Counted from the first letter of the stretch, positions 2,394 through 28,777 are shown. The stretch: DNA of 43,007 bases from Parcubacteria group bacterium (GCA_016176785.1 JACOWN010000011.1:1-43007), one strand, 5' to 3'. Translations and numbers: made by a program. The notes: generated by a model from the sequence alone, not told the origin.

Positions 2394-4032
<1,639 letters not shown>

Positions 4033-12120: not shown

Positions 12121-12158
12121 CTGTGGATAACTCAAGCCAAGGACGGTCCTTTTTCAGC
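12121..12158. repeat. DnaA box + REP-like palindrome unit
   Basis: TGTGGATAA 12122-12130 and AAGGACGGTCCTT 12139-12151; 35/38 identical to the reverse complement of 28729-28766. Confidence 0.85.
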
Positions 12159-12993
12159 CTTTGTTTGTAAGCAAAAGCAGGTTTTTGAACAGCATGGCGA
12201 CGGTAATCGGGCCGATGCCGCCGGGAACGGGGGTAAAAACGCTCGCTTTCTCCGCGCATGCGGGATCCGCGTCGCCCGCAAGTTTTCCTCCCTGTTTACC
12301 CCGCTCTGGCGGGGTTTCGCTGGTCGCCGCATCTAAAATCACGACCCCTTCTTTCACGACATCGGGCGTAATGAGCCCCGCCCTTCCCGCGCCGGAAACG
12401 ATAATGTCCGCATCTTTGGTGTACGCGCCGATGTCAGGCGTTCTGCTGTCAAGCACAGTGACTTTTCCCCCTTCTCGGCGCAACCAAACCGCAGCGGGCG
12501 CGCCGACGAGCCGTCCCTTGCCGATGATTACGACGTTCTTATTTTTAATTGTAACATTATTTCTTTCCAAAATCTCCCGAAGCGCGGCGACAACGGGAGG
12601 CACAATGCGGGACCGCCCGTCTTGAAACATCCGCTGCGATTCCACGGAGAGCATGTCGGGGTCGGCGTGCGGCGGGATGGCGTCAAGCACGCGAGCCGTG
12701 TCAAGCGTGTCCGGAAGCGGCAACTGAACTATAACGCCGCGATTCCCGCCCATTGCAACGCCTTCGACGTCAGACGCAAGACGCAGCGTGGCGATACCGT
12801 CGTCATATCGCCGTTCTTCAACCGTAACGCCGACATCGGACGCAAATTTTTTCTTGACGCTCAAAAATCGCTCCGAAACCGGATTATCCCCGATTATAAA
12901 AACAAAAAGCGTCGGTGGCGCCGTTCTTTCCGCCACCCGCGCTTTGAGCTCTTCTTTTATTTCTGCCGCGATTGCCCTGCCGTCAACGATCAT
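12154..12993 (-). CDS. folD: Methylenetetrahydrofolate dehydrogenase/cyclohydrolase
   Basis: IVDGRAIA, GVIVQLPLP, GRLVGAP, TPVPGGIGPITVAMLFKN. Confidence 0.93.
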   Translation of the reverse strand: MIVDGRAIAAEIKEELKARVAERTAPPTLFVFIIGDNPVSERFLSVKKKFASDVGVTVEERRYDDGIATLRLASDVEGVAMGGNRGVIVQLPLPDTLDTARVLDAIPPHADPDMLSVESQRMFQDGRSRIVPPVVAALREILERNNVTIKNKNVVIIGKGRLVGAPAAVWLRREGGKVTVLDSRTPDIGAYTKDADIIVSGAGRAGLITPDVVKEGVVILDAATSETPPERGKQGGKLAGDADPACAEKASVFTPVPGGIGPITVAMLFKNLLLLTNKG

Positions 12994-14216
12994 TTTTTCA
13001 GTATAGCATCAATTTTTGCGGCAATCTTTTTCATATCTTTTTCTTTCACGCCGCGAGTTGTTTCCGCAGGCGTGCCGAGGCGGATGCCGGAAGGGTCCAT
13101 TGGTTTCCGCGTATCAAAAGGAATGGTATTCATATTCACAATAATCCCCGCTTTTTCCAGACGCTCACTCGCTTCTTTACCGGAGATACCGCGGCCCCTC
13201 ATCCACGTATCAATGAGAAGAAGGTGCGAATCCGTTCCGCCGGAAACAACGCGCCACCCGCGCTTCTGCAGTTCTTCGGCGAGCATGCGCGCGTTTTTCA
13301 CCACCTGTTTTGCGTATTTTTTAAACGCCGGAGTATCCGCTTCCTGAAGCGCGACCGCCGCGGCGGCAATTTGATTCAAATGCGGCCCCCCTTGAAGCCC
13401 GGGAAAAACGGCTTTGTCAATTGCTTGCGCAATCGTAACTTTTGAATTTTGAATTTTACGTTTTGAGTTTGTTTCGGATTTCGGATTTCGGATTTCGGAT
13501 TTTCTTGAAAAGATAATTGCGCCACGCGGTCCGCGAAGCGTTTTGTGCGTGGTCGTTGTCACCACATCGGCGTATTTGAAAGGAGACGGATACGCGCCGC
13601 CCGCGACAAGCCCCGCGAAGTGCGACATATCAACCATCAGATACGCGCCGACTGCATCCGCAATTCCTCGAAATTTTTTAAAATTAATTTTTCGCGGATA
13701 TGCAGTAAATCCCGCAACGATAAGATGCGGCTTTTTTTTCTTCGCCACCCGCAAGAGCTCGGCGTAATCAAGCCGCTCCGTTTTTTTTGAAACGCCGTAC
13801 GGCACTTGTTCCCACAGCTTCCCCGTCGCCGACACGCCGTGTCCGTGCGTCAGGTGTCCGCCGTGCGAGAGCGTCATGCCCATGATTTTTCCTCCGGTCG
13901 GCACGAGCGCAAGGTAGACCGCGAAGTTCGCGGGCGAACCGGAGTACGGCTGAACATTCGCGTGCCATTTTTTAGGAGAAAGTTTGAAAAGTTTAAGCGC
14001 GCGTTCCTCGCAGAGCCGCTCCACCTCATCCGATATTTCATTCCCGCCGTAATAGCGCTTCCCCGGATATCCTTCGGCGTATTTATTGGTGAAAACGGAC
14101 GCAAGCGCTTCGCGCACATCGTCCGACACATAATTTTCAGACGCGATCAAATTCACGACGCGTTTTTGACGCCGCTCTTCCCGCCGTATCAGGCGCTCCG
14201 TGCGTTTGTCTTTCAT
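12990..14216 (-). CDS. glyA: Serine hydroxymethyltransferase
   Basis: LIASEN, NKYAEGYPGKRYYGG, GGHLTHG, TTTTHKTLRGPRG, GIRLGTPA. Confidence 0.97.
   Translation of the reverse strand: MKDKRTERLIRREERRQKRVVNLIASENYVSDDVREALASVFTNKYAEGYPGKRYYGGNEISDEVERLCEERALKLFKLSPKKWHANVQPYSGSPANFAVYLALVPTGGKIMGMTLSHGGHLTHGHGVSATGKLWEQVPYGVSKKTERLDYAELLRVAKKKKPHLIVAGFTAYPRKINFKKFRGIADAVGAYLMVDMSHFAGLVAGGAYPSPFKYADVVTTTTHKTLRGPRGAIIFSRKSEIRNPKSETNSKRKIQNSKVTIAQAIDKAVFPGLQGGPHLNQIAAAAVALQEADTPAFKKYAKQVVKNARMLAEELQKRGWRVVSGGTDSHLLLIDTWMRGRGISGKEASERLEKAGIIVNMNTIPFDTRKPMDPSGIRLGTPAETTRGVKEKDMKKIAAKIDAILKK
13441..13503. repeat. 7-bp-period tandem repeat inserted in frame in glyA
   Basis: TTTGAAT x2, TTTACGT, TTTGAGT, then TTTCGGA x4 (13472-13499). 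Confidence 0.85.
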
Positions 14217-14271
14217 GGGGATGTAATCTGTATATCACACGCGCCGCAAAACACAATCAACGGCCAGACCG

Positions 14272-15396
14272 TTAGGCAATAACTATTTCGCCCTGCGCTT
14301 CGTCGCGTTGCGTAAAACGACGATACCTTCGCATGCCCATTAGCATGCCGAGCCCCGCAAATTCGGTCACCAAATGAGACCCGCCGTAGCTCATAAAAGG
14401 AAGCGGCGTCCCAGTAACCGGCAAGAGCCCGATGTTCATGCCGACATGAATGACGGCGTGGCTCATTAAAAAAATGGCAAAACCAATGCCGAAAAGAGCT
14501 TCAAAGTTCGTGGCGCCGGCCATGGCTGCCGCAATGATGCGCCAGAGAATGACGCCAAAAAAAAGAAAAAGGAGCGCAACCCCGACAAAACCCCACTCCT
14601 CGGCAAACGCGGCAAAAATAAAATCGGTTTGGTACTCGGGCAAAAATTTAAGCCGCGATTGCGTGCCGTATCCGACGCCTTTTCCGAAGAATCCGCCGGA
14701 CCCGACCGCGATCGTTGACTGGTATGCGTTGTACCCCGCGCCGCGAATGTCGGTCAAGGGATGGATAAACGTCAGAATGCGCTGCTGCTGATACTCTTCA
14801 AACACGAATGACCACAGGAACATGAATGCGGCTGCGCCGCAGACGATAACGAGCGCGAGATGTTTCCACGAGACGCCGGCGAACATGATCATGCCGAGCC
14901 ATATCAGAACGATGATGATGGCGGAACCGAAATCCGGCTGCAGAAAAACGAGCGCGAAAGGAACGAATGCATAAAATCCGGAAACGAGAATGTGGCGCAG
15001 ATGCGCGATCTCAATATGCCGCCGCGAAAAATATTTCGCGAGCGTTGCGATAACGATGAGTTTTACGGGGTCGGACGGCTGAAGGGTGAACCCCCCGAAC
15101 TCAAACCAGCTTTGCGCTCCCCGAACCGTTTGCCCGATGATGAACAAAAGAAGCAGCACCAGCACTGAAACGAGAAAGAGCGCGACGATGACCCCGGTGC
15201 GGTTTAAGAATCGCCAGTCCACGGTGCTCGCCACAAAAAAAACGGCGACTGCGATGCCGAGCCACGCGATCTGCCTGCTGAAAAAATAATCCTCGCCGAC
15301 AAACGAGTTCATCGTAACAAGCCCCGCTCCGACGATCGGGAACAGGGCGGCAAAAAGGATCCAATCAATGGGGCTAGAGGCGAGAAACCGTGACAT
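14272..15396 (-). CDS. rodA: SEDS family peptidoglycan glycosyltransferase RodA
   Basis: GAQSWF, QPSDPVK, QPDFGS, GSGGFFGKG, LPEYQTDFIF, LPFMSYGGS. Confidence 0.9.
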   Translation of the reverse strand: MSRFLASSPIDWILFAALFPIVGAGLVTMNSFVGEDYFFSRQIAWLGIAVAVFFVASTVDWRFLNRTGVIVALFLVSVLVLLLLFIIGQTVRGAQSWFEFGGFTLQPSDPVKLIVIATLAKYFSRRHIEIAHLRHILVSGFYAFVPFALVFLQPDFGSAIIIVLIWLGMIMFAGVSWKHLALVIVCGAAAFMFLWSFVFEEYQQQRILTFIHPLTDIRGAGYNAYQSTIAVGSGGFFGKGVGYGTQSRLKFLPEYQTDFIFAAFAEEWGFVGVALLFLFFGVILWRIIAAAMAGATNFEALFGIGFAIFLMSHAVIHVGMNIGLLPVTGTPLPFMSYGGSHLVTEFAGLGMLMGMRRYRRFTQRDEAQGEIVIA

Positions 15397-16147
15397 TGAG
15401 GCGTGGAATAATGTCTATGCGCACCGGCCGTTCTGAAAATGGCGCGGGCCACAAAAACGTGATGCCGCGCTCGCTTTCGCGCGGAAGAAGGTCAACCTCG
15501 GTCTTTCCCACGGCAATGACCGTCTCGCGAGCGTCAAAGAGCAACGCAACGACCGTTATGCCGCGCGCGTCAACGAGCGACTGATTTGCGAGCGTTGCCG
15601 TAAGGCGCGGCTTTCCGTCCCTGTCATCCATGCGTTGATTCCGGACGGCGATGGTCGGTTTTTCGACGGCTGCCGTCCGCCAGCCGGTCTCCCCCTCGGC
15701 GGTGAAAAATATCCGCTGCGGAACGCGGGCGCCCGTTCCGATGCGCGGTTCGTAGACGGCAAATTGCTCATTGGGATTCGCGAACGTTTCGCCGCGGCGT
15801 TCCGCGATCAAGATATTTTCTGCGTCGTACAGTTTGAAGGAATACGCGAACTGCGGGAGTCCGGCGAGCGGGTTGGGATTTTCAACGAGCGCCACGGCGT
15901 CATAGACGCCGTCGCCGACGCGCGCAAACCGGCTCCATAATACAACGAGGTCCGCCACGCGGCTTTCGCAGACGGCGGAACACGGCCCGCCGCAGTCAAT
16001 ACCTTCTTCCCCTTGGTTCTGAATGCCGTCCGTGCAGCTCGCCGGACGATTGAAATAGGAAAAAAGCGGCACGCTGAAGAGCGCGGCCAAAAAACCCGCG
16101 ATCAGCAGAAAGTATACGAGTCGCCGTTGTGCAGCCCAGGAGCGCAT
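15374..16147 (-). CDS. Membrane-anchored hypothetical protein with Cys-rich motif
   Basis: N-terminal TM helix, CTDGIQNQGEEGIDCGGPC, beta-rich C-terminal part. Confidence 0.8.
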   Translation of the reverse strand: MRSWAAQRRLVYFLLIAGFLAALFSVPLFSYFNRPASCTDGIQNQGEEGIDCGGPCSAVCESRVADLVVLWSRFARVGDGVYDAVALVENPNPLAGLPQFAYSFKLYDAENILIAERRGETFANPNEQFAVYEPRIGTGARVPQRIFFTAEGETGWRTAAVEKPTIAVRNQRMDDRDGKPRLTATLANQSLVDARGITVVALLFDARETVIAVGKTEVDLLPRESERGITFLWPAPFSERPVRIDIIPRLNVTVSRL

Positions 16148-16235
16148 AGTGAGGAGCGTATTCTTTCATAGTAGCAAAAGAGGGCGCTCCCCGCCAAATG
16201 CGGCTATCATCGCCCCAACTTTTTTGAAATCTTTG

Positions 16236-16342
<107 letters not shown>

Positions 16343-16415
16343 CAAAGATTTCAAACAAATTCAAAACGAGGGCGCTCTGCCGCATCGTGCGGCGTGCTTC
16401 CCTCATTTCCTAACA

Positions 16416-19507
<3,092 letters not shown>

Positions 19508-19686
19508 TATTAGGAAATGAAGAAATCACGAACGACGCCTCCACTTCCCTTTTGTCAACGTCCTTTCCTGTCGCCCTTTCTGGAATTAAAAAACCGCCGA
19601 AGGGCGGTGAACCGACCACTACAAAACATCGGGTCTTAATCACCGCTTTTTTCTTGCTGATTATATGTCTTCATCATGTCCCCTCC

Positions 19687-19714
19687 ATTATAGCCGAGGC
19701 GAATATAATGTCAA
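19687..19714 (-). promoter_or_regulatory. Sigma70 promoter of 23S-5S unit
   Basis: Perfect TTGACA-16 bp-TATAAT; boxA-like GGACGTTGACAAAA at 19550-19563; DnaA box at 19765-19773. Confidence 0.85.
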
Positions 19715-19795
19715 GAAAGTCCGAGTTCGCCGCTTTTTCGCGGCAGTTTCCTCTTCCTGGGGAGTTATCCACAGAAAACGCCGGGGTCCGTATCG

Positions 19796-19825
19796 CAAAA
19801 CCCCGCTGCGTACAGCGGGGTTTTG
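19796..19825 (-). terminator. Rho-independent terminator
   Basis: CAAAACCCCGCTG-CGTA-CAGCGGGGTTTTG. Confidence 0.75.
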
Positions 19826-19844
19826 AGGAAGAAACTTTTTATGT

Positions 19845-20534
19845 CTATCGCTCGTGGGTTATGTCTTTTTGCAGTTTGTTCATGAACTTTCCGGCTGCGT
19901 CCTGTCCGCCAAAGCCAAACGCCAAACCGAGCGCGATTGCAAACGCAACCACGACGCCGGTAAAGAGCGTCTGCGCGAAAAATTCAGCAATACCGAGCTG
20001 TGAAAGCGCGATCAATACGGCAAAAATCCACACCGACCATTTCGCCAAGCCCCCAAGGAGCCCGGCGGCTTCGACTTCGGCTGCCCTCGCCGCACCGACG
20101 ACCAGCTTCCGAAGCGCGTCGCCGATCACCGCTGCGATCAACAAGATAAGCGCGGCGGCAATGACTTGCGGCAGATATGCGAGTACAACCTGCTGCAAAA
20201 AGACGTTTACCTGAGTAAGACCAAGAACATCGAGCGTTGCCACCAAGAAGACGACGAGGACGAACCATTTGACAAGTTCGCCGATGAATCGTCCCGAGTC
20301 AAGCCGAAAACCGGCCCGACCCAATACATCTTCAATGCCGGCGCTGCGAAGCGCAGTGTCGACGCGAAGCGAATGTATAACTTGAGCGACAACGCGACCC
20401 AAGAGCACGCCGATAACCCAACCGACGACAAAGATAACCAAGGCGATCACGAGGCGGGGGACGAAATCAACTGCCCCGAACCAAATCCCTTGGAACGACT
20501 GGGTTAAGACGGAACTCCATGTCTCAAACAACAT
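19845..20534 (-). CDS. TM-helix repeat protein (CmpX/MscS-associated family)
   Basis: FVPRLVIALVIFVVGW and YLPQVIAAALIL repeats, ALGLAFGFGG. Confidence 0.8.
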   Translation of the reverse strand: MLFETWSSVLTQSFQGIWFGAVDFVPRLVIALVIFVVGWVIGVLLGRVVAQVIHSLRVDTALRSAGIEDVLGRAGFRLDSGRFIGELVKWFVLVVFLVATLDVLGLTQVNVFLQQVVLAYLPQVIAAALILLIAAVIGDALRKLVVGAARAAEVEAAGLLGGLAKWSVWIFAVLIALSQLGIAEFFAQTLFTGVVVAFAIALGLAFGFGGQDAAGKFMNKLQKDITHER

Positions 20535-20783
20535 AGGTGGTAAATGCCCTAAAAGAGAGCGGGGTCAGAAAAACGCTTGCCCGGCTTCTCCTTTAGAAAA
20601 AATGCAATAAATTAAGCCTATAACGATGACCGTGCGGGTTCGGCGCTTGCCGCGCGTACTTGCGCACCCACAAATGAAAAAGCACGTTCGACCTTAAGTT
20701 AACGTAGTACTCTATAAATAATACCACCTCTGCCCGGTGGTTGTTGGGATGCCTGTGGATAACCGTGTTCGGCGTGTAAGGCC

Positions 20784-21419
20784 TTATCGCGGCAAGAGAG
20801 GCGGGACGCCGATGCGGTCAATGAGTTTTTCGTGTGGAAAATCAAGAATATCGCGCACAAATTTGTCGTAAATGCCGATGCGATAGAGGAACTCGGTCGT
20901 CGGAAAAACGGCGTAGCGGAGTTCTTTGCCCATTTCGGCTTCAAGAAGACGCATGGCCGGCAGGATATTTTTCCGTTTCAACGCATCGCCGACGATCAAG
21001 AGGTCTATCCTGCTGTAGTCGGCGTGAATAAAAACACCCGTAATGATGAGGAGCTTTATGTTTCCTGCGCCGCGGAAACGGGAGATAACGGAGCGGCGGT
21101 CAAATGTACGGGTGCTGGTGAGAAGAGCCCGAAGCGGCTCGAGGTACGGAAAACGCTCATCAAGCGCAAGGCCGCGAACCCATTTTTTGGCAGTCGCCGC
21201 ATTTTTGCCGCGCTTTTTCTGTATCTTGCGGATCACGCTCTGCCGCTTGATAAACCCGACGGAATGGAGCCGCGCGAGCTCGCGGCGCGCAATCTGGCTT
21301 TCAACTTTGCTTTTCAGGCGCACTTCCCCGACCGCGAACACTTCGTGCGGGTTTAAGAGGAAAAGGCGCATGATTTTTACGCGCGCGGGGCTGTCAAAGA
21401 GTTTGCTGAGCGTTTCCAT
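20784..21419 (-). CDS. Winged-HTH plus nucleotidyltransferase-like hypothetical protein
   Basis: LSKLFDSPARVKIMRLFL HTH start; TGVF...IDLLIVGD, LEAEMGKELRY. The upstream ORF extension is repeat-derived. Confidence 0.75.
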   Translation of the reverse strand: METLSKLFDSPARVKIMRLFLLNPHEVFAVGEVRLKSKVESQIARRELARLHSVGFIKRQSVIRKIQKKRGKNAATAKKWVRGLALDERFPYLEPLRALLTSTRTFDRRSVISRFRGAGNIKLLIITGVFIHADYSRIDLLIVGDALKRKNILPAMRLLEAEMGKELRYAVFPTTEFLYRIGIYDKFVRDILDFPHEKLIDRIGVPPLLPR

Positions 21420-21477
21420 TGCACCTATTGTACGTTCCGTGTCCGCAGGTGTCATGTTGCATGACGGTGCAAAACAT

Positions 21478-21543
21478 TGTGGAAAACTCGCAAAAGGACC
21501 GTCCTTTTTCAAAAAAGGACGGTCCTTTTTGAGGTTATCCACA
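21478..21543. repeat. Two REP-like palindromes bracketed by DnaA boxes
   Basis: TGTGGAAAA 21478, AAGGACCGTCCTT 21494, AAGGACGGTCCTT 21515, TTATCCACA 21535. Confidence 0.85.
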
Positions 21544-21552
21544 GTTCGCTGC

Positions 21553-21984
21553 TTATTTGAGCGTCACCGAGCCGCCAACGGCTTCAATTTTTTTCTTCAC
21601 CTCCTCTGCCTCGTCTTTCTTAACCCCCTCTTTCAAAACTGACGGGGCGGCGTCAACCAAATCCTTCGCCTCTTTAAGGCCTAAACCAAACGCCTCCTTC
21701 AACACCTTAATGACCTGTATCTTTTGGTCACCGGCTGACGAAAGCTCAACGGTAAAAGACGACTTCTCCGGCGCCGCAGCGGCCTCTCCGCCCACCGCGC
21801 CCGCCATCATCGGCATTGCGGCCATCACTTGCGCCGAAACGCCGAATTTCTTTTCCAAAACCTTTACCAATTCCGACAGATCCAAAACGCTCATCGTCTC
21901 TATTTTTTCGATAAGGTCTTTGAATTTCGCCGGCACTTCTATGTTTTCGTTTTCCGCTTCCGATGTTGTTTTTTCTTCAGACAT
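21553..21984 (-). CDS. rplL: 50S ribosomal protein bL12
   Basis: [34 protein letters not shown]. Alternative start 21993. Confidence 0.96.
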
Positions 21985-22034
21985 AAGTCCCATTCTTATT
22001 TTGACATTTGATAATCGTTCGCGTGTGCCGCGCG

Positions 22035-22556
22035 TTACACTCTTGAACGCGCGATTTGGTCAAGCGCACCGACGAGCGAGCGAAGCGGCCCGTTCAAGAC
22101 GGTGACTGCGCCGCGCATTGGTGCACTCAGAACCCTGACAAACTGGCCGTAGAGCTCTTCACGGCTCGGAATAAGCGCGAGGTTTTTCACCTCGTCGCCC
22201 GTGATGTAGCGCGCTTCAAAAATGCCCCCGACCGGCATCACCGCATCCTCAAGTTTTTTCTGGAATGCGGCAATGTTCTTCGCGGCCGCCATCGCGTCAG
22301 AGCTGTAGGCAAGCGCGATTTCTCCTTCAAGCGCCGGCTCCGTGCCCGTGACACCGGCATCGCTCAACGCGCGGCGCAAGAGCGTTTTTTTCGTTACGGT
22401 ATAGCCGACGCCTTTTTCCCGAAGGCTCTGCCGCATTTCGTTTGCATTGGCGACCGTGAGGCCCTTGAAATGCACGAATACCACCGAGCCGGCGTTCCGC
22501 ACGATATCGCCGAGCGCTTTGACGACCGTTTCTTTTTTCTCGCGTGTGACTGCCAT
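22035..22556 (-). CDS. rplJ: 50S ribosomal protein uL10
   Basis: [37 protein letters not shown]. Confidence 0.95.
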
Positions 22557-22637
22557 GATGTATCAACCAACAAAAAATGCCCTGCTAAGGGCCGGAGATA
22601 GTATCCGCAACGGCGCTTGCGCGCCGTAGACGGTCGA

Positions 22638-22705
22638 CCTGCCTCGGTGGGGCTGGCGTGTGCGCCGTTTGATCCCGCCCTGCGGGACCCCACTGTCTCC
22701 GGCTG
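22638..22705 (-). promoter_or_regulatory. L10 leader autoregulatory RNA
   Basis: CCGGAGACAGTGGGG...CCCCACCGAGG kink-turn pattern upstream of rplJ. Confidence 0.8.
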
Positions 22706-22817
22706 ATAATCGGAGTATACCGGTATGGCGTATTTTGTCAATTGCGGCTTCGCCCGCCCCCGCCGCATAATGCGGGGAGGTCTCTGTGCCTTACCATACC
22801 GAGAAAGGAAGACGCCC

Positions 22818-23591
22818 GTGAGGATTTCTGCGGCCCTCTTATGCCTTTGCGTGGGTATTCTGTATGGAGTAGCGCCTCAAACTGCGGCTGCACACATCGC
22901 GACATGTCCCGCCCCGCCTTCTTTGAAAAGTTACAAATCGGTCGTTTGGATCGGCGCGTACGACAAGGCGGGGGATGCTTCGGTATGGCACGCCACCGCT
23001 TTTGCCCTCACGCCGTTCTTCTTGGTAACGAACGCTCATGTTGCCGAGGGGTTGAAAAGAGCGGCGGAAGCAAGAGGCAGTACTGCATCAATTACCGGCT
23101 GGATACCGGCAGTCGTTATAACATACGACGCATACCGAACGTCCAACGGCAGCGCAGTGCACACTCCAGACAGATACTTTACCGAAGTGCGCATTGCCCT
23201 CAACGACACGCCTCACGATATTGCCGTGCTTGAAGTTAAGGTGCCGCTTTTTGACATAGAACCGGTTACGTTCGCGCCCCACGGACCGGCAACCGCCGAA
23301 GCTGGCTTTGCCATCGGGCATCCGGAAAACAGCGCGTTTGCCGTCGTTGACCTTTCTTTCATTGCGCCATACAACCCTGCGGAGAACTCAACCATCATTT
23401 ATATTACGAACGCTTCGGGTATTCCGACGCCGTTCGGGCAGGGGTCATCCGGCTCGCCGCTTTTTAACTGCCGCGGCGAGGTTGTCGGCATTAATACGCA
23501 CGTCTTTTCCACCAACCCTATGGGACAAGGAACGCACCACTTTGCGCTTTCGAGCGCCGTGCATTATTGGCGTGAAAAAGTTGGACGATGA
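22818..23591 (+). CDS. Secreted trypsin-like serine protease
   Basis: Signal peptide, TNAHV, DIAVL, GSSGSP catalytic triad. GTG start inferred. Confidence 0.88.
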   Translation: MRISAALLCLCVGILYGVAPQTAAAHIATCPAPPSLKSYKSVVWIGAYDKAGDASVWHATAFALTPFFLVTNAHVAEGLKRAAEARGSTASITGWIPAVVITYDAYRTSNGSAVHTPDRYFTEVRIALNDTPHDIAVLEVKVPLFDIEPVTFAPHGPATAEAGFAIGHPENSAFAVVDLSFIAPYNPAENSTIIYITNASGIPTPFGQGSSGSPLFNCRGEVVGINTHVFSTNPMGQGTHHFALSSAVHYWREKVGR

Positions 23592-23604
23592 CAAAATAGC
23601 AATC

Positions 23605-23632
23605 GGCCGTCGCTTCCGCGACGGCCTTTTTT
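23605..23632 (+). terminator. Rho-independent terminator
   Basis: GGCCGTCGC-TTCC-GCGACGGCC-TTTTTT. Confidence 0.8.
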
Positions 23633-23635
23633 CCG

Positions 23636-23714
23636 CCAAGGACGGTCCTTTTCGAGTTTATCCACAGAAACTGTCGATAAGTTTGTGGATAAAACAGAAA
23701 AGGACCGTCCTTTT
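23636..23714. repeat. 79-bp REPIN-like cassette, copy A (palindrome - 3 DnaA boxes - palindrome)
   Basis: Exact reverse complement of 24193-24271; boxes at 23658, 23672 (1 mismatch), 23684. Confidence 0.92.
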
Positions 23715-23717
23715 TGG

Positions 23718-23970
23718 CTACGGGAGCAAATCTGCCGGATCGGTTGTCGGCGATCCGCAGTTGGTGCAGGAAATCGTATTGCTACCGACGCCCTTCACGT
23801 CAATTTCATTTCCGGAGAAGGTAATATCCGATAACGATACACTTGTGTTTTCCGCATACACTCCCGCTGCCGTCGTGCCGATATTTTTCTCGGTATGATT
23901 GCGGATCGTCGTATCGGACACAGAAACGTTCGCCGCGCCGTTGAGCCGCATGCCGTATTGGTAATTGTTT
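23718..23970 (-). pseudogene. Orphan C-terminal fragment of a beta-helix-like protein
   Basis: IENNYQYGMRL...VSVSDTTIRN...GVYAENTSVSLSDITFSGNEID pattern; no convincing start of its own. Confidence 0.5.
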
Positions 23971-24084
23971 TCAATAAGCGCGCGCGTCGGGGTCAAAATA
24001 AATAACGGCATACCACACCCCGACAGCGACGAGAATGATCGCTATGAATCCGACACCAAATTTGATCGCGGAGCTATTGAACAT
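23971..24084 (-). CDS. 37-aa single-TM small protein
   Basis: MFNSSAIKFGVGFIAIILVAVGVWYAVIYFDPDARAY; upstream TACAAT. Confidence 0.55.
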   Translation of the reverse strand: MFNSSAIKFGVGFIAIILVAVGVWYAVIYFDPDARAY

Positions 24085-24168
24085 GGTCGGGGGGGTTAAT
24101 GTTCACCATTGTAGCGCTTATCCAAGCGAATGAAAGTTTACATTTGCCAGCTTTTGTCACATAAACAA

Positions 24169-24271
24169 AAAAGGACGGTCCTTTTCTGTTTTAAAAGGAC
24201 GGTCCTTTTCTGTTTTATCCACAAACTTATCGACAGTTTCTGTGGATAAACTCGAAAAGGACCGTCCTTGG
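24169..24271. repeat. 79-bp REPIN-like cassette, copy B, plus 24-bp tandem duplication
   Basis: 24193-24271 is the inverted copy of A; 24169-24192 repeats 24193-24216. Confidence 0.92.
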
Positions 24272-24281
24272 CTATTGGTTG

Positions 24282-24446
24282 TTAGCGGTCTGATGTTGAT
24301 GTCGTTGACACGGGGACAACGGGAGATGCTTCGGGAAACGCGCTGCGGGCCGAGCCGGCAAAGAATGCGCCGGCGAGGCCGAGCAGGACAAGGAGGGCAA
24401 AACCGGAGACAAAATGCCAAAAAACTTTTGATTCCAAAATATCCAT
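24282..24446 (-). CDS. 54-aa single-TM small protein
   Basis: MDILESKVFWHFVSGFALLVLLGLAGAFF...; TGGTACAAT 6 nt before ATG. Confidence 0.6.
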   Translation of the reverse strand: MDILESKVFWHFVSGFALLVLLGLAGAFFAGSARSAFPEASPVVPVSTTSTSDR

Positions 24447-24450
24447 CGTT

Positions 24451-25194
24451 CTATTGTACCACAACCGCGGCCTTCGCCGGCGCCTGTTTTTCCCAATCCA
24501 TTGAATCAAGGTCGCCCCGTTCTTCGCGTTCAAGCGAAGCGAGCCACAGGTGAATAAAATCGCGAAAATCATTGACATTTTTAAAATAATTATGCCAAAG
24601 TGCCGGATCGCGGTTTACAATCGCCCCCTCAGGCCTCGCCGTGCCAACAAAGTCAAGATAGCTTGATGACGTATAGCGCTCCAAAAATGCCCGCGCCGTT
24701 TCTACGTCGCGGATCCCCGATTTCCACTCGGGGTCAATGAGCTTTAACGGATTCAGGTGGATATATGCGAAAAGGTACTCAAAATATGACTCTTTTGCAA
24801 CGAGCATGGCCTTAAACCTCCCCTCAAAAAGCGTGCCGGTCCGTTTGTATTTACGGTTGAAATACATGGCGTACGCCGTCCCGAGCTTTTTCATAAATTG
24901 GGAAATGCCGCCCGGGACCAGCTCGTGAAGCAAGAGGTGGTAATGATTCGGCATAAGACAATAGGCGCCGATATCGGTGAGCTGCTCGCCGCGCTGCTCC
25001 TTAAAAACCTCGGTAAACGGCCTCCCGCGCTCAAAGAATCTCTTGACATCAAGAGATTCGGTGCTGTTGCAAGCATATAAAAGCCCCATAAAACGGAGGT
25101 GGTCGTTTTTCTCGCTGAAAATAATGCGTCGGTCGGCGCCGCGATTGTACACATGATAGAACGAACCCTTGAGAAACGGGGCTTTGCGTTGCAT
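24451..25194 (-). CDS. REP-associated tyrosine transposase (RAYT, Y1 HUH family)
   Basis: YHVYNRG, AYCLMPNHYHLLL (HUH), YFNRKYKRTGTLFEGRFK, YIHLNP (catalytic Tyr), SSY; flanked by palindromes; no tnpB. Confidence 0.92.
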   Translation of the reverse strand: MQRKAPFLKGSFYHVYNRGADRRIIFSEKNDHLRFMGLLYACNSTESLDVKRFFERGRPFTEVFKEQRGEQLTDIGAYCLMPNHYHLLLHELVPGGISQFMKKLGTAYAMYFNRKYKRTGTLFEGRFKAMLVAKESYFEYLFAYIHLNPLKLIDPEWKSGIRDVETARAFLERYTSSSYLDFVGTARPEGAIVNRDPALWHNYFKNVNDFRDFIHLWLASLEREERGDLDSMDWEKQAPAKAAVVVQ

Positions 25195-25240
25195 ATATAC
25201 CCCCCATGCTAGCGATTTGGGGAGATTAGTAAACAGGGGG

Positions 25241-25272
25241 CTGTGGATAACTCACAAAAGGACCGTCCTTGG
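25241..25272. repeat. DnaA box + REP-like palindrome upstream of RAYT
   Basis: TGTGGATAA 25242-25250, AAGGACCGTCCTT 25258-25270. Confidence 0.88.
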
Positions 25273-25281
25273 CGGGAGACG

Positions 25282-25309
25282 ACAAAACCCCGCGGAAGCG
25301 GGGTTTTGT
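25282..25309 (-). terminator. Rho-independent terminator
   Basis: ACAAAACCCCGC-GGAA-GCGGGGTTTTGT. Confidence 0.8.
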
Positions 25310-25343
25310 GTCAATATTCTGACTGATTTGACCGAGGGCGTTT

Positions 25344-26519
25344 TTATTCGCCAAACACTTCTTTCATCTTTGCGCGCGTTCCCGGACCAACCAAGCCATA
25401 TCCTGTCGTTTCGGGGGTTCCAGAAGAGACGATCCCGTACTTCTTTTGGAACTTCTTCACCGCATTCTCCGTTGCCGCGCCGTAGAAGGTTGTTTCATTG
25501 CCGGCAGAGCCGACGCCTGACGCGGCAATGCGAGTATCAGCATCAGAGTTCAAGAGCTGCTGGAGGCGTTTAACGTCTTCGCCGGTCGTTCCGCGTGTCA
25601 AGGTGCGGGTAAAGACGGGGGATACGCTTGCCGCAACCGGAGACGGCTGGGCAACCGATGCCGCGGGCACGCCGCTGAAGACATTCTCAAGCTTTGCGCG
25701 TGTCTTGGGGCCCACTTCACCGTATCCGGGATCGCCCGGTCCGGCAATTCCATACTTCACCTGGAACTTCTTCACCGCATTCTCCGTTGCCGCGCCGTAA
25801 GAGTTCAAGAGCTGCTGGAGGCGTTTAACGTCGCTGCCTTCCGAACCGCGGCTCATCCCCTTGGAGAATACTGCCGAAACCGCGGGCGCTTGCTGGGCAA
25901 GCACAGACCTCGCCGCCACCGCTTTATCCGCCGGAATGACTCCGAGCGCGATGAAAAGTTCAACGATCTTTGAGAGTTCGCTCGCAGCCGCGCTTACTGC
26001 CGCCGATGCCGCTGTCGTTGCTGCGGGAGCGGCAGCCGCCACCGTTGAGGCCGCGGCGCTACCACCACCGCCTCCTCCTCCACCACCGCCTCCTCCACCA
26101 CCGCCTCCACCCGTGGTACAAACCGCCGAGTTAGGGGTGACCGTAACGGTTACCGTCTCAGAGCCAGAACCAGGCCCCGCAAGAACGAGAATAGAATTCG
26201 ACGAACTACAAGTGAACGATTCTACACGGTTTGAAGGGCTTACCGTAAAGGTGTTTCTTCCGGTCGTCGTAACTGACATAGCTGCGCCGGGGGGCATGTC
26301 CACCGTAAAGTTTCCACTGTTCACGGTAATGGACTCCACGCCCGATTCGGAAACGGTCATAGTGACGCTGTTCGAAACAATCTCCGTCCCCGACTGCAGA
26401 ATTGCATCGTTGTTTGCGGCAAATGCAATGAACGAGATTGAAAGAAAGCTCACCAAGAACGTCAGGCAACAGACATACAGCCAGGATTTATCCGAATTAG
26501 CTTGATAATGAACTTTCAT
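25344..26519 (-). CDS. Secreted protein with poly-Gly linker and two peptidoglycan-binding domains
   Basis: Signal/TM segment; L.RG..G.DVKRLQQLLN...YGAATENAVKKFQ...G.VGP.TRAK twice. Confidence 0.85.
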   Translation of the reverse strand: MKVHYQANSDKSWLYVCCLTFLVSFLSISFIAFAANNDAILQSGTEIVSNSVTMTVSESGVESITVNSGNFTVDMPPGAAMSVTTTGRNTFTVSPSNRVESFTCSSSNSILVLAGPGSGSETVTVTVTPNSAVCTTGGGGGGGGGGGGGGGGGSAAASTVAAAAPAATTAASAAVSAAASELSKIVELFIALGVIPADKAVAARSVLAQQAPAVSAVFSKGMSRGSEGSDVKRLQQLLNSYGAATENAVKKFQVKYGIAGPGDPGYGEVGPKTRAKLENVFSGVPAASVAQPSPVAASVSPVFTRTLTRGTTGEDVKRLQQLLNSDADTRIAASGVGSAGNETTFYGAATENAVKKFQKKYGIVSSGTPETTGYGLVGPGTRAKMKEVFGE

Positions 26520-26573
26520 GGGGTTGATACATTTAATTAGCAAAGTAATAGATCATTCTACCAACTGCCTACC

Positions 26574-27764
26574 TTATATCGGCTGGCACTCTCCTGCTTC
26601 AACCTTCAAACTGATACCGCTTGCATCCGCCCCAGGTGTTGATGTCGCGTAAATCCTGATAATAACGCCGCTCGTAGATCTCATTTGGATACATGACCCG
26701 ACGTTGGTTCCGCTTGAGTGGAGTTTCAAGGAGGTGGTCCCGGGAGAACCGGCGTGAATGCTTCCCAAAACGCCGAGGTTTGCGGAAAGCGCGGGGCTGG
26801 TTGTTCCTATGCCGAGCGCGCTGCCGAGCACTCCATCAGCGCCGATCGTCGTCGTCGCAAACGTACTCGCGGACACGGTCGTTGTCGCATATCCCGCAAT
26901 GCTGAATACTCCGATTCCCCGGGTTGCAACGGAAAACGAATTCGTCGTAGATGCATTTCCGGTGAGGATAATCGCATCGGCAGCATTATTGCCCAAAGTC
27001 ACGGCACCGTTTGCGGTAAGAGCACCGGTCAGGGTGGTTGCTCCAAGGACGGACAAAGCATCGTCTGTCGTCTCCACAACGCCGACCCCCAAACCTCCGG
27101 TACCTATATATACGTCGCCAGTCACGTTTAATCCGGTTACCGACGGGGTGGTAGATGCGATATTGACCGTGCCCGCCTGGTCAACAGAGAAGACCTCAAC
27201 GCTTTCATCATACACGGCAATTAAATCCGCCGTTTGCGCGGAGCCCTTTGAACCCATAATGGCAAGGGGAATGGATGTCGTCGTCGTTGAGTTCAAGAGA
27301 AGCACTGCATTTCCGCTAAACGGCGAAGTGATCGGGACCGTTGTGGTGCCCAGTGTCATGTACGCCTTTGCAATTGTGTTAAATCTGACGCCGTTTGAAT
27401 CACTTGCAAGGATAAGACCGCCACTCGCATCCGTTGACGAAGCAACGGACATCCAATCGGTTCCGTTATACACGCGGATAACTCTGCGCGCGGTATCCCA
27501 GTAGAGAGCTCCCGCCGCATCGCCTGTCGGGTCGGATGCCGCGTTATCGAGAGCCATTTGGTCGTAGAAAAATGCTTTGCCGGTAACCGAAAGGGTGCTT
27601 GTCGCAAACACGCTTCCCGTTACCGTTACATTTCCTCCTGTTGAAATATTCGTGCTGATCGTCGTCGCCGCCGAAACAACGAGCGCGACGAACATGACGG
27701 AGAGAACGACCGAGAGCGTAATGGAATAAAAACTCTTGTTTCTAAATAATTTGCTAAAACTCAT
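26574..27764 (-). CDS. Secreted Ser/Thr-rich surface protein
   Basis: Signal peptide ending VSA, ATTISTNISTGG, GIGTTSP, C-terminal Cys pair. Start uncertain. Confidence 0.8.
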   Translation of the reverse strand: MSFSKLFRNKSFYSITLSVVLSVMFVALVVSAATTISTNISTGGNVTVTGSVFATSTLSVTGKAFFYDQMALDNAASDPTGDAAGALYWDTARRVIRVYNGTDWMSVASSTDASGGLILASDSNGVRFNTIAKAYMTLGTTTVPITSPFSGNAVLLLNSTTTTSIPLAIMGSKGSAQTADLIAVYDESVEVFSVDQAGTVNIASTTPSVTGLNVTGDVYIGTGGLGVGVVETTDDALSVLGATTLTGALTANGAVTLGNNAADAIILTGNASTTNSFSVATRGIGVFSIAGYATTTVSASTFATTTIGADGVLGSALGIGTTSPALSANLGVLGSIHAGSPGTTSLKLHSSGTNVGSCIQMRSTSGVIIRIYATSTPGADASGISLKVEAGECQPI

Positions 27765-27954
27765 AGTGCGAAACTTTTGAGAGCCCTTCCGGGTTCTCAT
27801 TAAAAGCAGCATTAACAATAATAAGCGACTAATAAATTGACCTGCGAAACTCTACAGCAACAGAGCGCCATCGCGCGTATTGCTGTAGCGTGGTACTTTT
27901 TCAATTATACTTTTAATTATACTTGAAAAAACAAATAAAAGTGTGGATAACTCA

Positions 27955-27993
27955 CACAAAACACCCCGAGCCATTGGCACGGGGTGTTTTGTG
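27955..27993 (-). terminator. Terminator with adjacent DnaA box (27942-27950)
   Basis: CACAAAACACCCCG...CGGGGTGTTTTGTG. Confidence 0.75.
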
Positions 27994-28001
27994 TGTTGTT
28001 G

Positions 28002-28691
28002 TTAGACGCCGAGATTTTTGAGGAGCGTCTTGATGACTTCGCTATCCGGGCGCGCAACCATGCTGCGATTGAGAAACGCCCTTGCTTTTTCCTCACTGCG
28101 AACAACTTCAAGGTAAAAATCAACAACTTGCGGATATAAGTAGTCAAGACCCGGATTGTTTTCTACCGCCCGAAGAAAATTGGCCTCAGCGCGAGCTTGA
28201 TCATTAAGGTAATAAGCATATAAAACGCCAAGATTGGAGAAAGAAAGCGAATTTTGAGGACGCAGGGCACTTGCATATTCCCACGCCTCCAGCGCGCCAT
28301 CGTAATCCTCGATTGATTTACGGAGCAGCCCAAGATCCATCCAATCATTGAAAAGGCTCGCGTCTTGACTTAAACGGGCAGAAATATCCTTGATTTGGCT
28401 GGCTATCTCGTCTTTGCGCACTAATTGTTGAGGAATGTTGACCGGCCTGTCTAAGTTCGGTACGGGGAGCGCGACATGATCACTTGCCGCTCCGGTGGCA
28501 CTACCCCCAGCAGTAGTATCAACCACTACTTTGGGAATCTCTATAGTACCTCCTTGTCCAACACCAGCAACAGGGACGTCTGATTGAGTTAGCACGGGCT
28601 CTTCTTTTTTTGTGCCGAAATAGATAAAAAGCCCGACAAAACCGATAAAAATCGTAAAAACCGCAACGAAATACAAAGTTTTTCTACTCAT
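28002..28691 (-). CDS. Membrane-anchored TPR protein
   Basis: N-terminal TM; WMDLGLL...DYDGALEAWEYA...P.NSLSFSNLG TPR pattern. Confidence 0.8.
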   Translation of the reverse strand: MSRKTLYFVAVFTIFIGFVGLFIYFGTKKEEPVLTQSDVPVAGVGQGGTIEIPKVVVDTTAGGSATGAASDHVALPVPNLDRPVNIPQQLVRKDEIASQIKDISARLSQDASLFNDWMDLGLLRKSIEDYDGALEAWEYASALRPQNSLSFSNLGVLYAYYLNDQARAEANFLRAVENNPGLDYLYPQVVDFYLEVVRSEEKARAFLNRSMVARPDSEVIKTLLKNLGV

Positions 28692-28728
28692 ATAGTGTAT
28701 ATTCTATATATTTATTCATATTTTGCAA

Positions 28729-28777
28729 GCTGAAAAAGGACCGTCCTTGGGGTGGGTTATCCACAGTTTTTTCCACA
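28729..28777. repeat. REP-like palindrome + two DnaA boxes
   Basis: AAGGACCGTCCTT 28736, TTATCCACA 28757, TTTTCCACA 28769. Confidence 0.88.

Follow-up and report, generated by a model that had tools for sequence, protein, structure and literature searches.

Why should the repeat of a transposase-like enzyme lie again and again beside a binding motif of the replication initiator? The question is raised by a stretch of 43,007 nucleotides (nt), called the window throughout, which forms contig 16 (GCA_016176785.1 JACOWN010000011.1) in the tiny genome of a groundwater member of the Parcubacteria. The window carries a gene for a protein like the REP-associated tyrosine transposases (RAYTs), copies of the palindrome AAGGACSGTCCTT, which resembles a repetitive extragenic palindrome (REP), and, next to these, copies of TTATCCACA, the DnaA-box consensus. 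REP/RAYT systems are widespread, and their benefit to the cell is still debated. We suggest, at a probability of roughly 0.55, that the repeats belong to a RAYT-linked REP/REPIN family whose unit joins the palindrome to an optional DnaA box, and that this box is read in trans by the DnaA of the host.

The genome, referred to as G000, has 544,107 base pairs (bp) in 18 contigs and is 92% complete. Comparisons were made with a sample of 151 genomes of the same order, which are denoted by handles of this type. All are metagenome bins, in which repeats are often collapsed or broken in assembly, and palindrome and box statistics over the sample take relatives as independent and genome sizes as rounded. 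Intergenic DNA of G000 amounts to about 57 kb, as delimited by crude longest open reading frame (ORF) calls, on which the gene contexts given below also rest.

Ten exact copies of AAGGACSGTCCTT were found in the window, where 0.01 is expected and 0 of 100 shuffles reach ten, together with 12 perfect TTATCCACA boxes, where 0.09 is expected. The palindromes occupy 6 intergenic loci (Table 1), exactly where a preliminary description of this DNA had placed them, and each of the six has a perfect box 7–8 bp from a palindrome, much as that description, which gave this spacing as typical, had claimed. The genome-wide comparison that it proposed gave the same picture. G000 holds 27 exact palindromes at 20 loci and 39 perfect boxes; for 19 of the 27 palindromes the gap to a perfect box is 7–8 bp, against 0.07 expected from random placement of boxes in the intergenic DNA, and 21 of the 39 boxes lie inside such units. 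When one mismatch in the box is allowed, the number of units rises to 28 and covers 26 of the 27 palindromes. Among these units, 21 carry the exact 9-mer and 7 carry one mismatch, and the mismatched variants are few and recurrent (TGTGGAAAA five times, TGGGGATAA twice). Relaxing the palindrome to two mismatches added only three more repeat-like copies. The family more than doubles the stock of perfect DnaA boxes in G000.

All 20 loci lie outside long ORFs, 13 between tandem, 5 between convergent and 2 between divergent genes (background 223/68/68), with at least one divergent assignment, that of the locus at 21494, being an artefact of a spurious ORF over rplL. Several of them adjoin ordinary terminator hairpins.

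Read in one orientation, the unit consists of TGTGGATAA, a spacer of 7–8 nt and then the palindrome, which has the design AAGG-N5-CCTT with a very short stem of 5–6 bp and one central base. The whole forms a discrete stretch of about 38 bp. The loci at 12121-12158 and 28729-28766, the latter as reverse complement, are alike at 35 of 38 bases, as previously described, and the similarity ends at the unit borders. Box and palindrome hardly change from unit to unit, whereas the spacer is variable, and the 21 type-A units have about 16 versions of it; the units fall into subfamilies with common spacers and sharp borders. Four forms occur, namely singles (11 loci), box–palindrome–box arrangements, and inverted doublets with either the boxes or the palindromes inside, and doublet-type arrangements account for 9 of the 20 loci. 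At three loci two boxes abut head to head, and in 7 of the 28 units another box-like 9-mer, in direct orientation, lies 11–12 bp upstream. Folded as single-stranded DNA (ssDNA), doublets reach -19.6 to -32.4 kcal/mol (z scores of -6.5 to -10.3) with two boxes paired in the stem, and single units reach -4.1 to -5.5 kcal/mol (z scores of -0.2 to -1.0), which is no better than shuffles.

Assignment of the gene at 24451-25194 as RAYT-like was supported from several sides. The protein matches Pfam Y1_Tnp (E 9.5e-9, 35.9 bits against a cut-off of 23 bits), and both H84 and H86 of the HUH motif and the catalytic Y144 are invariant in an alignment of 37 homologues, in which W157, SSY177-179 and W217 of the C-terminal region are conserved as well. 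An AlphaFold (AF2) model with a predicted local distance difference test (pLDDT) score of 87.7 found its best PDB match by Foldseek in 4er8_A (E 5.3e-6), which is Escherichia coli TnpA-REP with a REP hairpin; the next fold matches were the TnpA proteins of IS608 and ISDra2. Units flank the gene on both sides, 48–76 bp upstream of its start codon and 182 bp downstream, and 6 of the 27 palindromes of the genome lie within 1.7 kb of it.

The preliminary description had seen no DnaA-C-like helix–turn–helix (HTH) in the 247-residue protein and had proposed a hidden Markov model scan of its homologues. Both points were followed up, and a DnaA-like domain in the enzyme was not detected by Pfam, NCBIfam, hhalign and two fold searches. 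None of the 37 members matches the DnaA_C or HTH families of Pfam (Bac_DnaA_C, HTH_23, HTH_28-like) at E values up to 5, and hhalign against the DnaA of G000 itself gave a probability of 2%. A model of the C-terminal 98 residues (pLDDT 75) had no PDB fold match at E below 4.9. Fused or longer RAYT forms were absent among proteins of 434-2000 amino acids (aa), which is weak evidence.

Apart from this single RAYT copy, G000 has one paralogue, 35% identical, on contig 9. It is flanked by its own strong hairpin REP, TGTTCAACA-N5-TGTTGAACA with CCCGA as N5, which is present in 15 copies in G000 and is uncoupled from boxes. Such pairing of each enzyme with a repeat family of its own is known for RAYTs, according to the part of Quentin 2018 available here (PMC6006769). 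One copy of the REP of the paralogue lies in frame within the coding sequence of the paralogue (contig 9: 75060), in a variable loop. AAGGACSGTCCTT likewise occurs within a RAYT ORF in two further genomes (G081:C8:10800-10812 and G147:C23:2847-2859), and many aligned homologues have KGRSF or GRS at the same loop, as though the enzymes had absorbed their own REP in frame.

The clade is large. It has 1881 database matches, the names of which include Parcubacteria, Paceibacterota, Nomurabacteria and Vogelbacteria; the best 120 of these 1881 homologues mostly have 216-281 aa, and homologues are present in 84 of the 151 genomes. We inspected 220-nt flanks at 30 RAYT loci. Most loci have a species-specific palindrome of the AAGG-N5-CCTT type on one or both sides, for example AAGGTCCGACCTT, AAGGTTCAACCTT and TAGGTCGGACCTA, and an 11-mer is common to both 150-nt flanks at 15 of the 30 loci against 1 of 26 shifted controls. 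The RAYT-like gene has the window palindrome on its flanks, and homologues elsewhere have palindromes of the same design on theirs, which supports the window palindrome as the REP of this gene. This link appears to be as good as sequence alone allows, and action of the enzyme on the palindrome would be expected from its homology to E. coli TnpA-REP.

At 8 of the 30 loci, the one in the window included, such a palindrome has a perfect TTATCCACA no more than about 25 nt away. These box-coupled RAYTs are scattered on the tree, with 7 changes for 8 rows against a shuffled mean of 7.2. A box-specific RAYT subclade was considered and dropped, as the coupled members do not cluster, on a tree that is poorly resolved (13 of 27 inner branches open). 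The palindrome AAGGACSGTCCTT itself is present in 15 of the 151 genomes. The exact composite of G000 was absent from its 40 nearest relatives, and a search of 185,579 species genomes returned only 6 stretches, in 5 other assemblies.

Composites of palindrome and box nevertheless recur elsewhere in the order. The most extensive family is in G121 (0.7 Mb), which has 184 palindromes of the form AAGGGGWCCCCTT and 147 perfect boxes, 130 of them exactly 5 nt from a palindrome. The forms are those of G000, that is single, box–palindrome–box and arrayed, and the RAYT of this genome is 51% identical to that of the window. With 28 sharply bordered units in G000 and 130 units in G121, the earlier proposal that box and palindrome spread as one unit is supported. 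Smaller families occur in G027 (10+3), G066 (6+3) and G090 (4+1). More generally, AGG-N5-CCT lies within 13 nt of a perfect box in 17 of the 151 genomes in one orientation, where a reversed-pattern control gave 1 match in total; the other orientation gave 13 of 151 genomes, with 2 control matches. RAYTs of these genera are only about 50% identical and their palindromes differ, yet the box is exact. In five genomes a composite is found within 100 nt of the RAYT gene. The preliminary description had called for a comparison by RAYT presence. A RAYT is present in 18 of 23 composite genomes and in 66 of 128 genomes without composite (Fisher p 0.02, relatives not being independent), which agrees with the proposed link; composites in G066, which has no Y1_Tnp match, do not. 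Insertion of the palindrome beside boxes that already existed was rejected as the main cause, since G121 has 130 boxes in units against a median of 17 perfect boxes per genome; the common spacers and borders of the units also speak against it.

What the host offers as a reader of these boxes appears ordinary. G000 has one DnaA, full-length with DnaA_N, Bac_DnaA and Bac_DnaA_C (96.9 bits), and in the stretch GGRDHTTVIH of domain IV it does not differ from the solved DnaA 8btg_A, which we take to be the protein of Bacillus subtilis. In this 92% complete genome, searches gave no match to the Hda-type, YabA and SeqA families and no second Bac_DnaA gene. The dnaA and dnaN genes are on contig 3, and the AT-rich spacer between them is the likely oriC (22836-23081); the perfect boxes of G000 sit in repeats and not in this spacer. 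An oriC or second origin in the window was also considered and rejected, with dnaA/dnaN and the AT-rich spacer being on contig 3 and the units of the window being dispersed and without an AT-rich element.

Across the order, TTATCCACA is more frequent than its reversed control in 143 of the 151 genomes, with medians of 17 and 4. The motif is therefore probably in use across the order, and DnaA boxes outside the origin seem to be a general feature of this group. The two highest box densities are those of G121 (about 210 per Mb) and G000 (72 per Mb), and counts range from 5 to 147 boxes per genome. Free boxes outside units number 18 in G000 and 17 in G121, which is the ordinary level. The box is quoted in print as TT[AT]TNCACA (Quentin 2018, PMC6006769, in the part available).

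According to the scheme that we prefer, the unit would have two modules, the palindrome of the enzyme and a consensus DnaA box 7–8 bp away, and the box would be copied as part of the unit instead of being a pre-existing target. It would be read in trans by the single canonical DnaA of the cell and not by the RAYT-like protein. Host DnaA is the simplest reader because the palindromes vary, the 9-mer is exact and the enzyme has no DnaA-type domain. Spread of the repeat would then seed high-affinity putative DnaA sites through intergenic DNA, and inverted doublets could form long hairpins with a double-stranded box in the stem, as at the A site of the ABC primosome. The likeliest consequence may be a benefit to the host by DnaA titration or by control linked to replication; the next likeliest would be help for the element in reaching ssDNA, helicase loading or priming. 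Opening of DNA or timing of RAYT activity by DnaA, as proposed in the preliminary description, would likewise presuppose binding to the boxes. The sequences show the anatomy and copy numbers of the units, their link to the RAYT clade, their recurrence with other palindromes, no detectable DnaA-like domain in the enzyme and a canonical DnaA in the host; binding of DnaA to the boxes, and what would follow from it, are inferred.

Several findings weigh against this scheme. Box and palindrome had been described as always coupled, which is true of the G000 genome and fails for the RAYT clade. Copies of AAGGACSGTCCTT in G113 (13), G149 (10), G027 (7), G081 (5) and G117 (5) have no perfect box within 14 nt, and the 220-nt flanks of 22 of the 30 RAYT loci are free of perfect boxes. 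Across the clade, hence, the box is a second, optional module. Spacing and orientation are lineage-specific, with 7-8 nt in G000, 5 nt in G121 and 3 nt with reversed orientation in G027. A fixed complex of RAYT and DnaA on DNA is unlikely because the box is optional and its geometry differs in this way between lineages, and a tie between the two proteins looser than one fixed complex is more likely. Y1_Tnp had no match in G066, G068, G096, G060 and G130. Among these, G066 is 99% complete and has about 9 composites (AGGACGGTCCTC and others), so either its RAYT was lost and left orphan repeats or the composites are independent of the enzyme. The likely oriC spacer holds imperfect boxes only (TGTAGATAA, TGTGTATAA and TTATGCACA). 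The score of the window protein against the NCBIfam model REP_Tyr_transpos (NF047646) is 42.2 bits, under the equivalog cut-off of 80 bits, for which reason we call the gene RAYT-like and place it in a divergent clade. Recognition of single units as hairpins is uncertain because they fold no better than shuffles. Finally, the stretch is present in 7 rows of public runs from 3 studies, with no RNA data set among these rows. Logan contigs of 4 of these runs end at repeats, with repeat joints of 32-33 letters on the short side, and insertion and empty-site alleles are unreadable because the public contigs break at repeats.

These points leave room for other explanations. The 9-mer may be read by the RAYT-like protein, or by its C-terminal helical domain (about residues 150-225), as a guide, cleavage or anchor site, in which case it would match the DnaA box through convergence or mimicry. 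Y1 transposases such as IS608 and TnpA-REP rely on a conserved sequence that keeps a fixed, short spacing to the hairpin, composites often lie right at the RAYT gene, and the C-terminal 70 residues are conserved in the clade with no assigned function, all of which would suit such a role. Related Y1 proteins also carry a Bac_DnaA_C-like domain, as far as the available part of PMC6006769 goes. We consider this improbable, as Pfam (37 members), hhalign and the fold search with the domain model (pLDDT 75) found no HTH or DnaA_C in the protein and the same palindrome is box-free in five RAYT genomes. Moreover, the 9-mer stays exact beside different palindromes and enzymes that share only half of their residues, and the coupled loci are scattered on the tree with varying orientation and spacing. 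Hitch-hiking without function, in which each genome amplified a founder REP along with a DnaA box that happened to be its neighbour, is hardly more convincing. Perfect boxes are plentiful enough in all 151 genomes (median 17) for a chance founder adjacency, and an optional box with lineage-specific geometry would fit. However, it needs independent events with different palindromes in 23 of 151 genomes, against 3 control matches in all. The box of G000 is almost invariant while the neighbouring spacer varies freely, its one-mismatch variants are few and recurrent (mostly TGTGGAAAA), and 7 of 28 units have tandem boxes, at 11-12 bp, that look like DnaA arrays.

The units might also not be mobile at all. 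They would then be bipartite regulatory or terminator sites, a palindrome that is bound by a dimer in duplex form, or that works as a terminator in both directions, next to a DnaA operator, and the RAYT-like gene would be one regulated neighbour. Dimeric regulators typically bind sites such as a perfect palindrome of 13 bp, the ssDNA folds of single units are weak, and most units follow genes (in crude ORF calls, 13 tandem and 5 convergent against 2 divergent). Shapes with an A-run, hairpin and T-run exist, for example at 21494-21527, and G066 keeps its composites without a Y1 gene. Nevertheless, from genus to genus the palindromes change together with the RAYT homologue, which has them on either side, the paralogue has a separate REP, units fall into subfamilies with common spacers and sharp borders, and a doublet beside the gene has been duplicated over 80 nt with 100% identity. 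Of the alternatives set out here we regard this one as the least probable. Returning to host DnaA as the reader, a benefit at each locus is favoured because spacers vary, motifs are near-perfect and composites persist without the enzyme in G066.

A bolder version of this reading is doubtful and is stated here as a possibility. In streamlined Patescibacteria, REPs may have been co-opted as carriers of consensus DnaA boxes and so make up a chromosome-wide, dispersed sink for DnaA, tunable by copy number, which would replace the missing Hda, SeqA and YabA, and doublets may double as DnaA-dependent sites of helicase loading on ssDNA. If so, replication control in these cells would depend partly on a repeat population maintained by the RAYT.

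Like the preliminary description, which knew of no account of the coupling, we found none in the open-access papers searched; no report there has REP-type repeats that carry DnaA boxes, and only Quentin 2018 joins REP/RAYT with DnaA. The hint at DnaA published there concerns some Y1 proteins with a DnaA-like domain, and in the part of the article available here (PMC6006769) it has no counterpart in the DNA. In the present genomes the matching site is on the repeat itself, exact, and in up to 130 copies in a genome of 0.7 Mb, and its pairing with different palindromes has arisen or been kept in several genera. This would tie a domesticated transposase system concretely to the replication initiator in uncultured cells with tiny genomes. 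In addition, counts of DnaA boxes used for origin finding may be dominated by repeats in such genomes and need caution.

The features of the window, and the paralogue on contig 9, are listed in Table 1.

Table 1. Palindrome–box units, free boxes and RAYT-like genes, with positions in the window unless a contig is named
Feature	Position	Strand	Details
Single unit	12122..12151	+	box 12122-12130, 8-nt spacer, palindrome 12139-12151
Inverted doublet, palindromes inside	21478..21543		TGTGGAAAA (one mismatch) 21478-21486, palindromes 21494 and 21515, perfect box 21535-21543; just downstream of rplL; ssDNA fold -19.6 kcal/mol, z -6.5
Inverted doublet, boxes inside	23638..23712		palindrome 23638, boxes 23658 and 23684, palindrome 23700; ssDNA hairpin -30.2 kcal/mol, z -10.3; boxes pair with each other in the stem
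Solo palindrome and inverted doublet	24171..24269		solo palindrome 24171; doublet with palindrome 24195, boxes 24215 and 24241, palindrome 24257; downstream of the RAYT-like gene; ssDNA fold -32.4 kcal/mol, z -9.0
Inverted repeat, 80 nt, 100% complementary	arms 23635-23714 and 24193-24272		478 nt between arms; duplicate of the whole doublet beside the RAYT-like gene
RAYT-like Y1/HUH gene, 247 aa	24451..25194	-	Pfam Y1_Tnp
Single unit	25242..25270	+	box 25242-25250, palindrome 25258-25270; upstream of the RAYT-like gene
Free perfect box, no palindrome	27942..27950	-	flank TGTGGATAACTCACAC resembles box and spacer of unit 25242
Single unit	28736..28765	-	palindrome 28736-28748, box 28757-28765; box-like 9-mer TGTGGAAAA 12 bp further out
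Further free boxes	19765, 20754, 33171		
RAYT-like paralogue, 226 aa	contig 9: 74884-75564	+	

Some further observations concern these features and their surroundings. The segment of 478 nt between the arms of the inverted repeat holds an ORF of 97 aa (23718-24011) with a weak beta-helix match. In run X6, one contig of low depth (3.5x) has a junction between 23715 and 24193 whose two sides lie on opposite strands and whose shorter side has 172 letters, a hint that the segment 23635-24272 is perhaps present in both orientations. Contigs of runs X1 and X2 have 12 additional letters after 27932, ten bases from the free box at 27942. Elsewhere in the window, the 16S gene (2395-4032) is separated from the 23S–5S pair (16412-19501 and 16236-16341) by about 12 kb of protein genes, and the 16S and 23S matches, at 1638 and 3090 nt, extend about 100 and about 165 nt beyond the Rfam models, so that insertions are possible.

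Compared with known systems, the family is closest to the RAYT/REP/BIME/REPIN systems, represented by E. coli TnpA-REP (4er8) and the REPINs of Pseudomonas. Common to both are a Y1/HUH enzyme with HUH motif and catalytic tyrosine, a low-copy gene flanked by its own palindromes, dispersal of these in intergenic DNA as singles and hairpin-forming doublets, and a separate repeat family for each paralogue. Unlike in those systems, the unit of the window has a second module identical to the DnaA-box consensus, its palindrome is very short with single units that fold weakly, and the protein, which falls short of the NCBIfam cut-off, carries an additional conserved helical domain at its C terminus. 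The host group, Patescibacteria with genomes of about 0.5-1 Mb, is also different.

DnaA-titrating loci are known from E. coli (datA) and from B. subtilis (DnaA-box clusters), and these are few, fixed clusters. Like them, the units would offer predicted high-affinity boxes outside oriC in numbers able to sink DnaA; unlike them, the sites are dispersed as repeat cargo and vary from 5 to 147 per genome among relatives. A site for a DNA-binding protein of the host inside a repeated unit, putative in our case, has a parallel in BIME-1 (RIB-RIP) of E. coli, where the linker between the REP pair often holds an IHF site, according to the available part of PMC3333891. The predicted factor here is DnaA and not IHF, the site is a perfect consensus, and it recurs with unrelated palindromes in several genera. 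In the A site of the ABC primosome, as far as the available part of PMC6127211 goes, DnaA on an ssDNA hairpin with a box in its stem recruits DnaB-DnaC and permits priming. The doublets of the window are predicted to fold in the same manner, with a double-stranded box in the stem, although the A site was defined in vitro as one element of a plasmid or phage and the doublets belong to dozens of chromosomal repeats known from their sequence.

The nearest precedent for a tie between Y1 enzymes and DnaA is subclass 2.1.2 of the TnpA-REP-like Y1 proteins (the 'TIRYT' group), with a C-terminal Bac_DnaA_C-like HTH (Quentin 2018, PMC6006769). The statement of the preliminary description that some RAYTs carry such a domain agrees with this article. 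The available part of that text does not mention Parcubacteria or Candidatus taxa, and it reports no REPs near the genes of this subclass and flanking repeats unlike DnaA boxes. Both systems tie a Y1 enzyme of REP type to DnaA-type recognition, and both proteins have a conserved serine motif after the catalytic tyrosine, SSY177-179 in the window protein. The two differ in where that recognition is placed (PMC6006769, in the part available): in subclass 2.1.2 the DnaA-like part is in the protein, whereas in the family described here a perfect DnaA box is in the DNA repeat.

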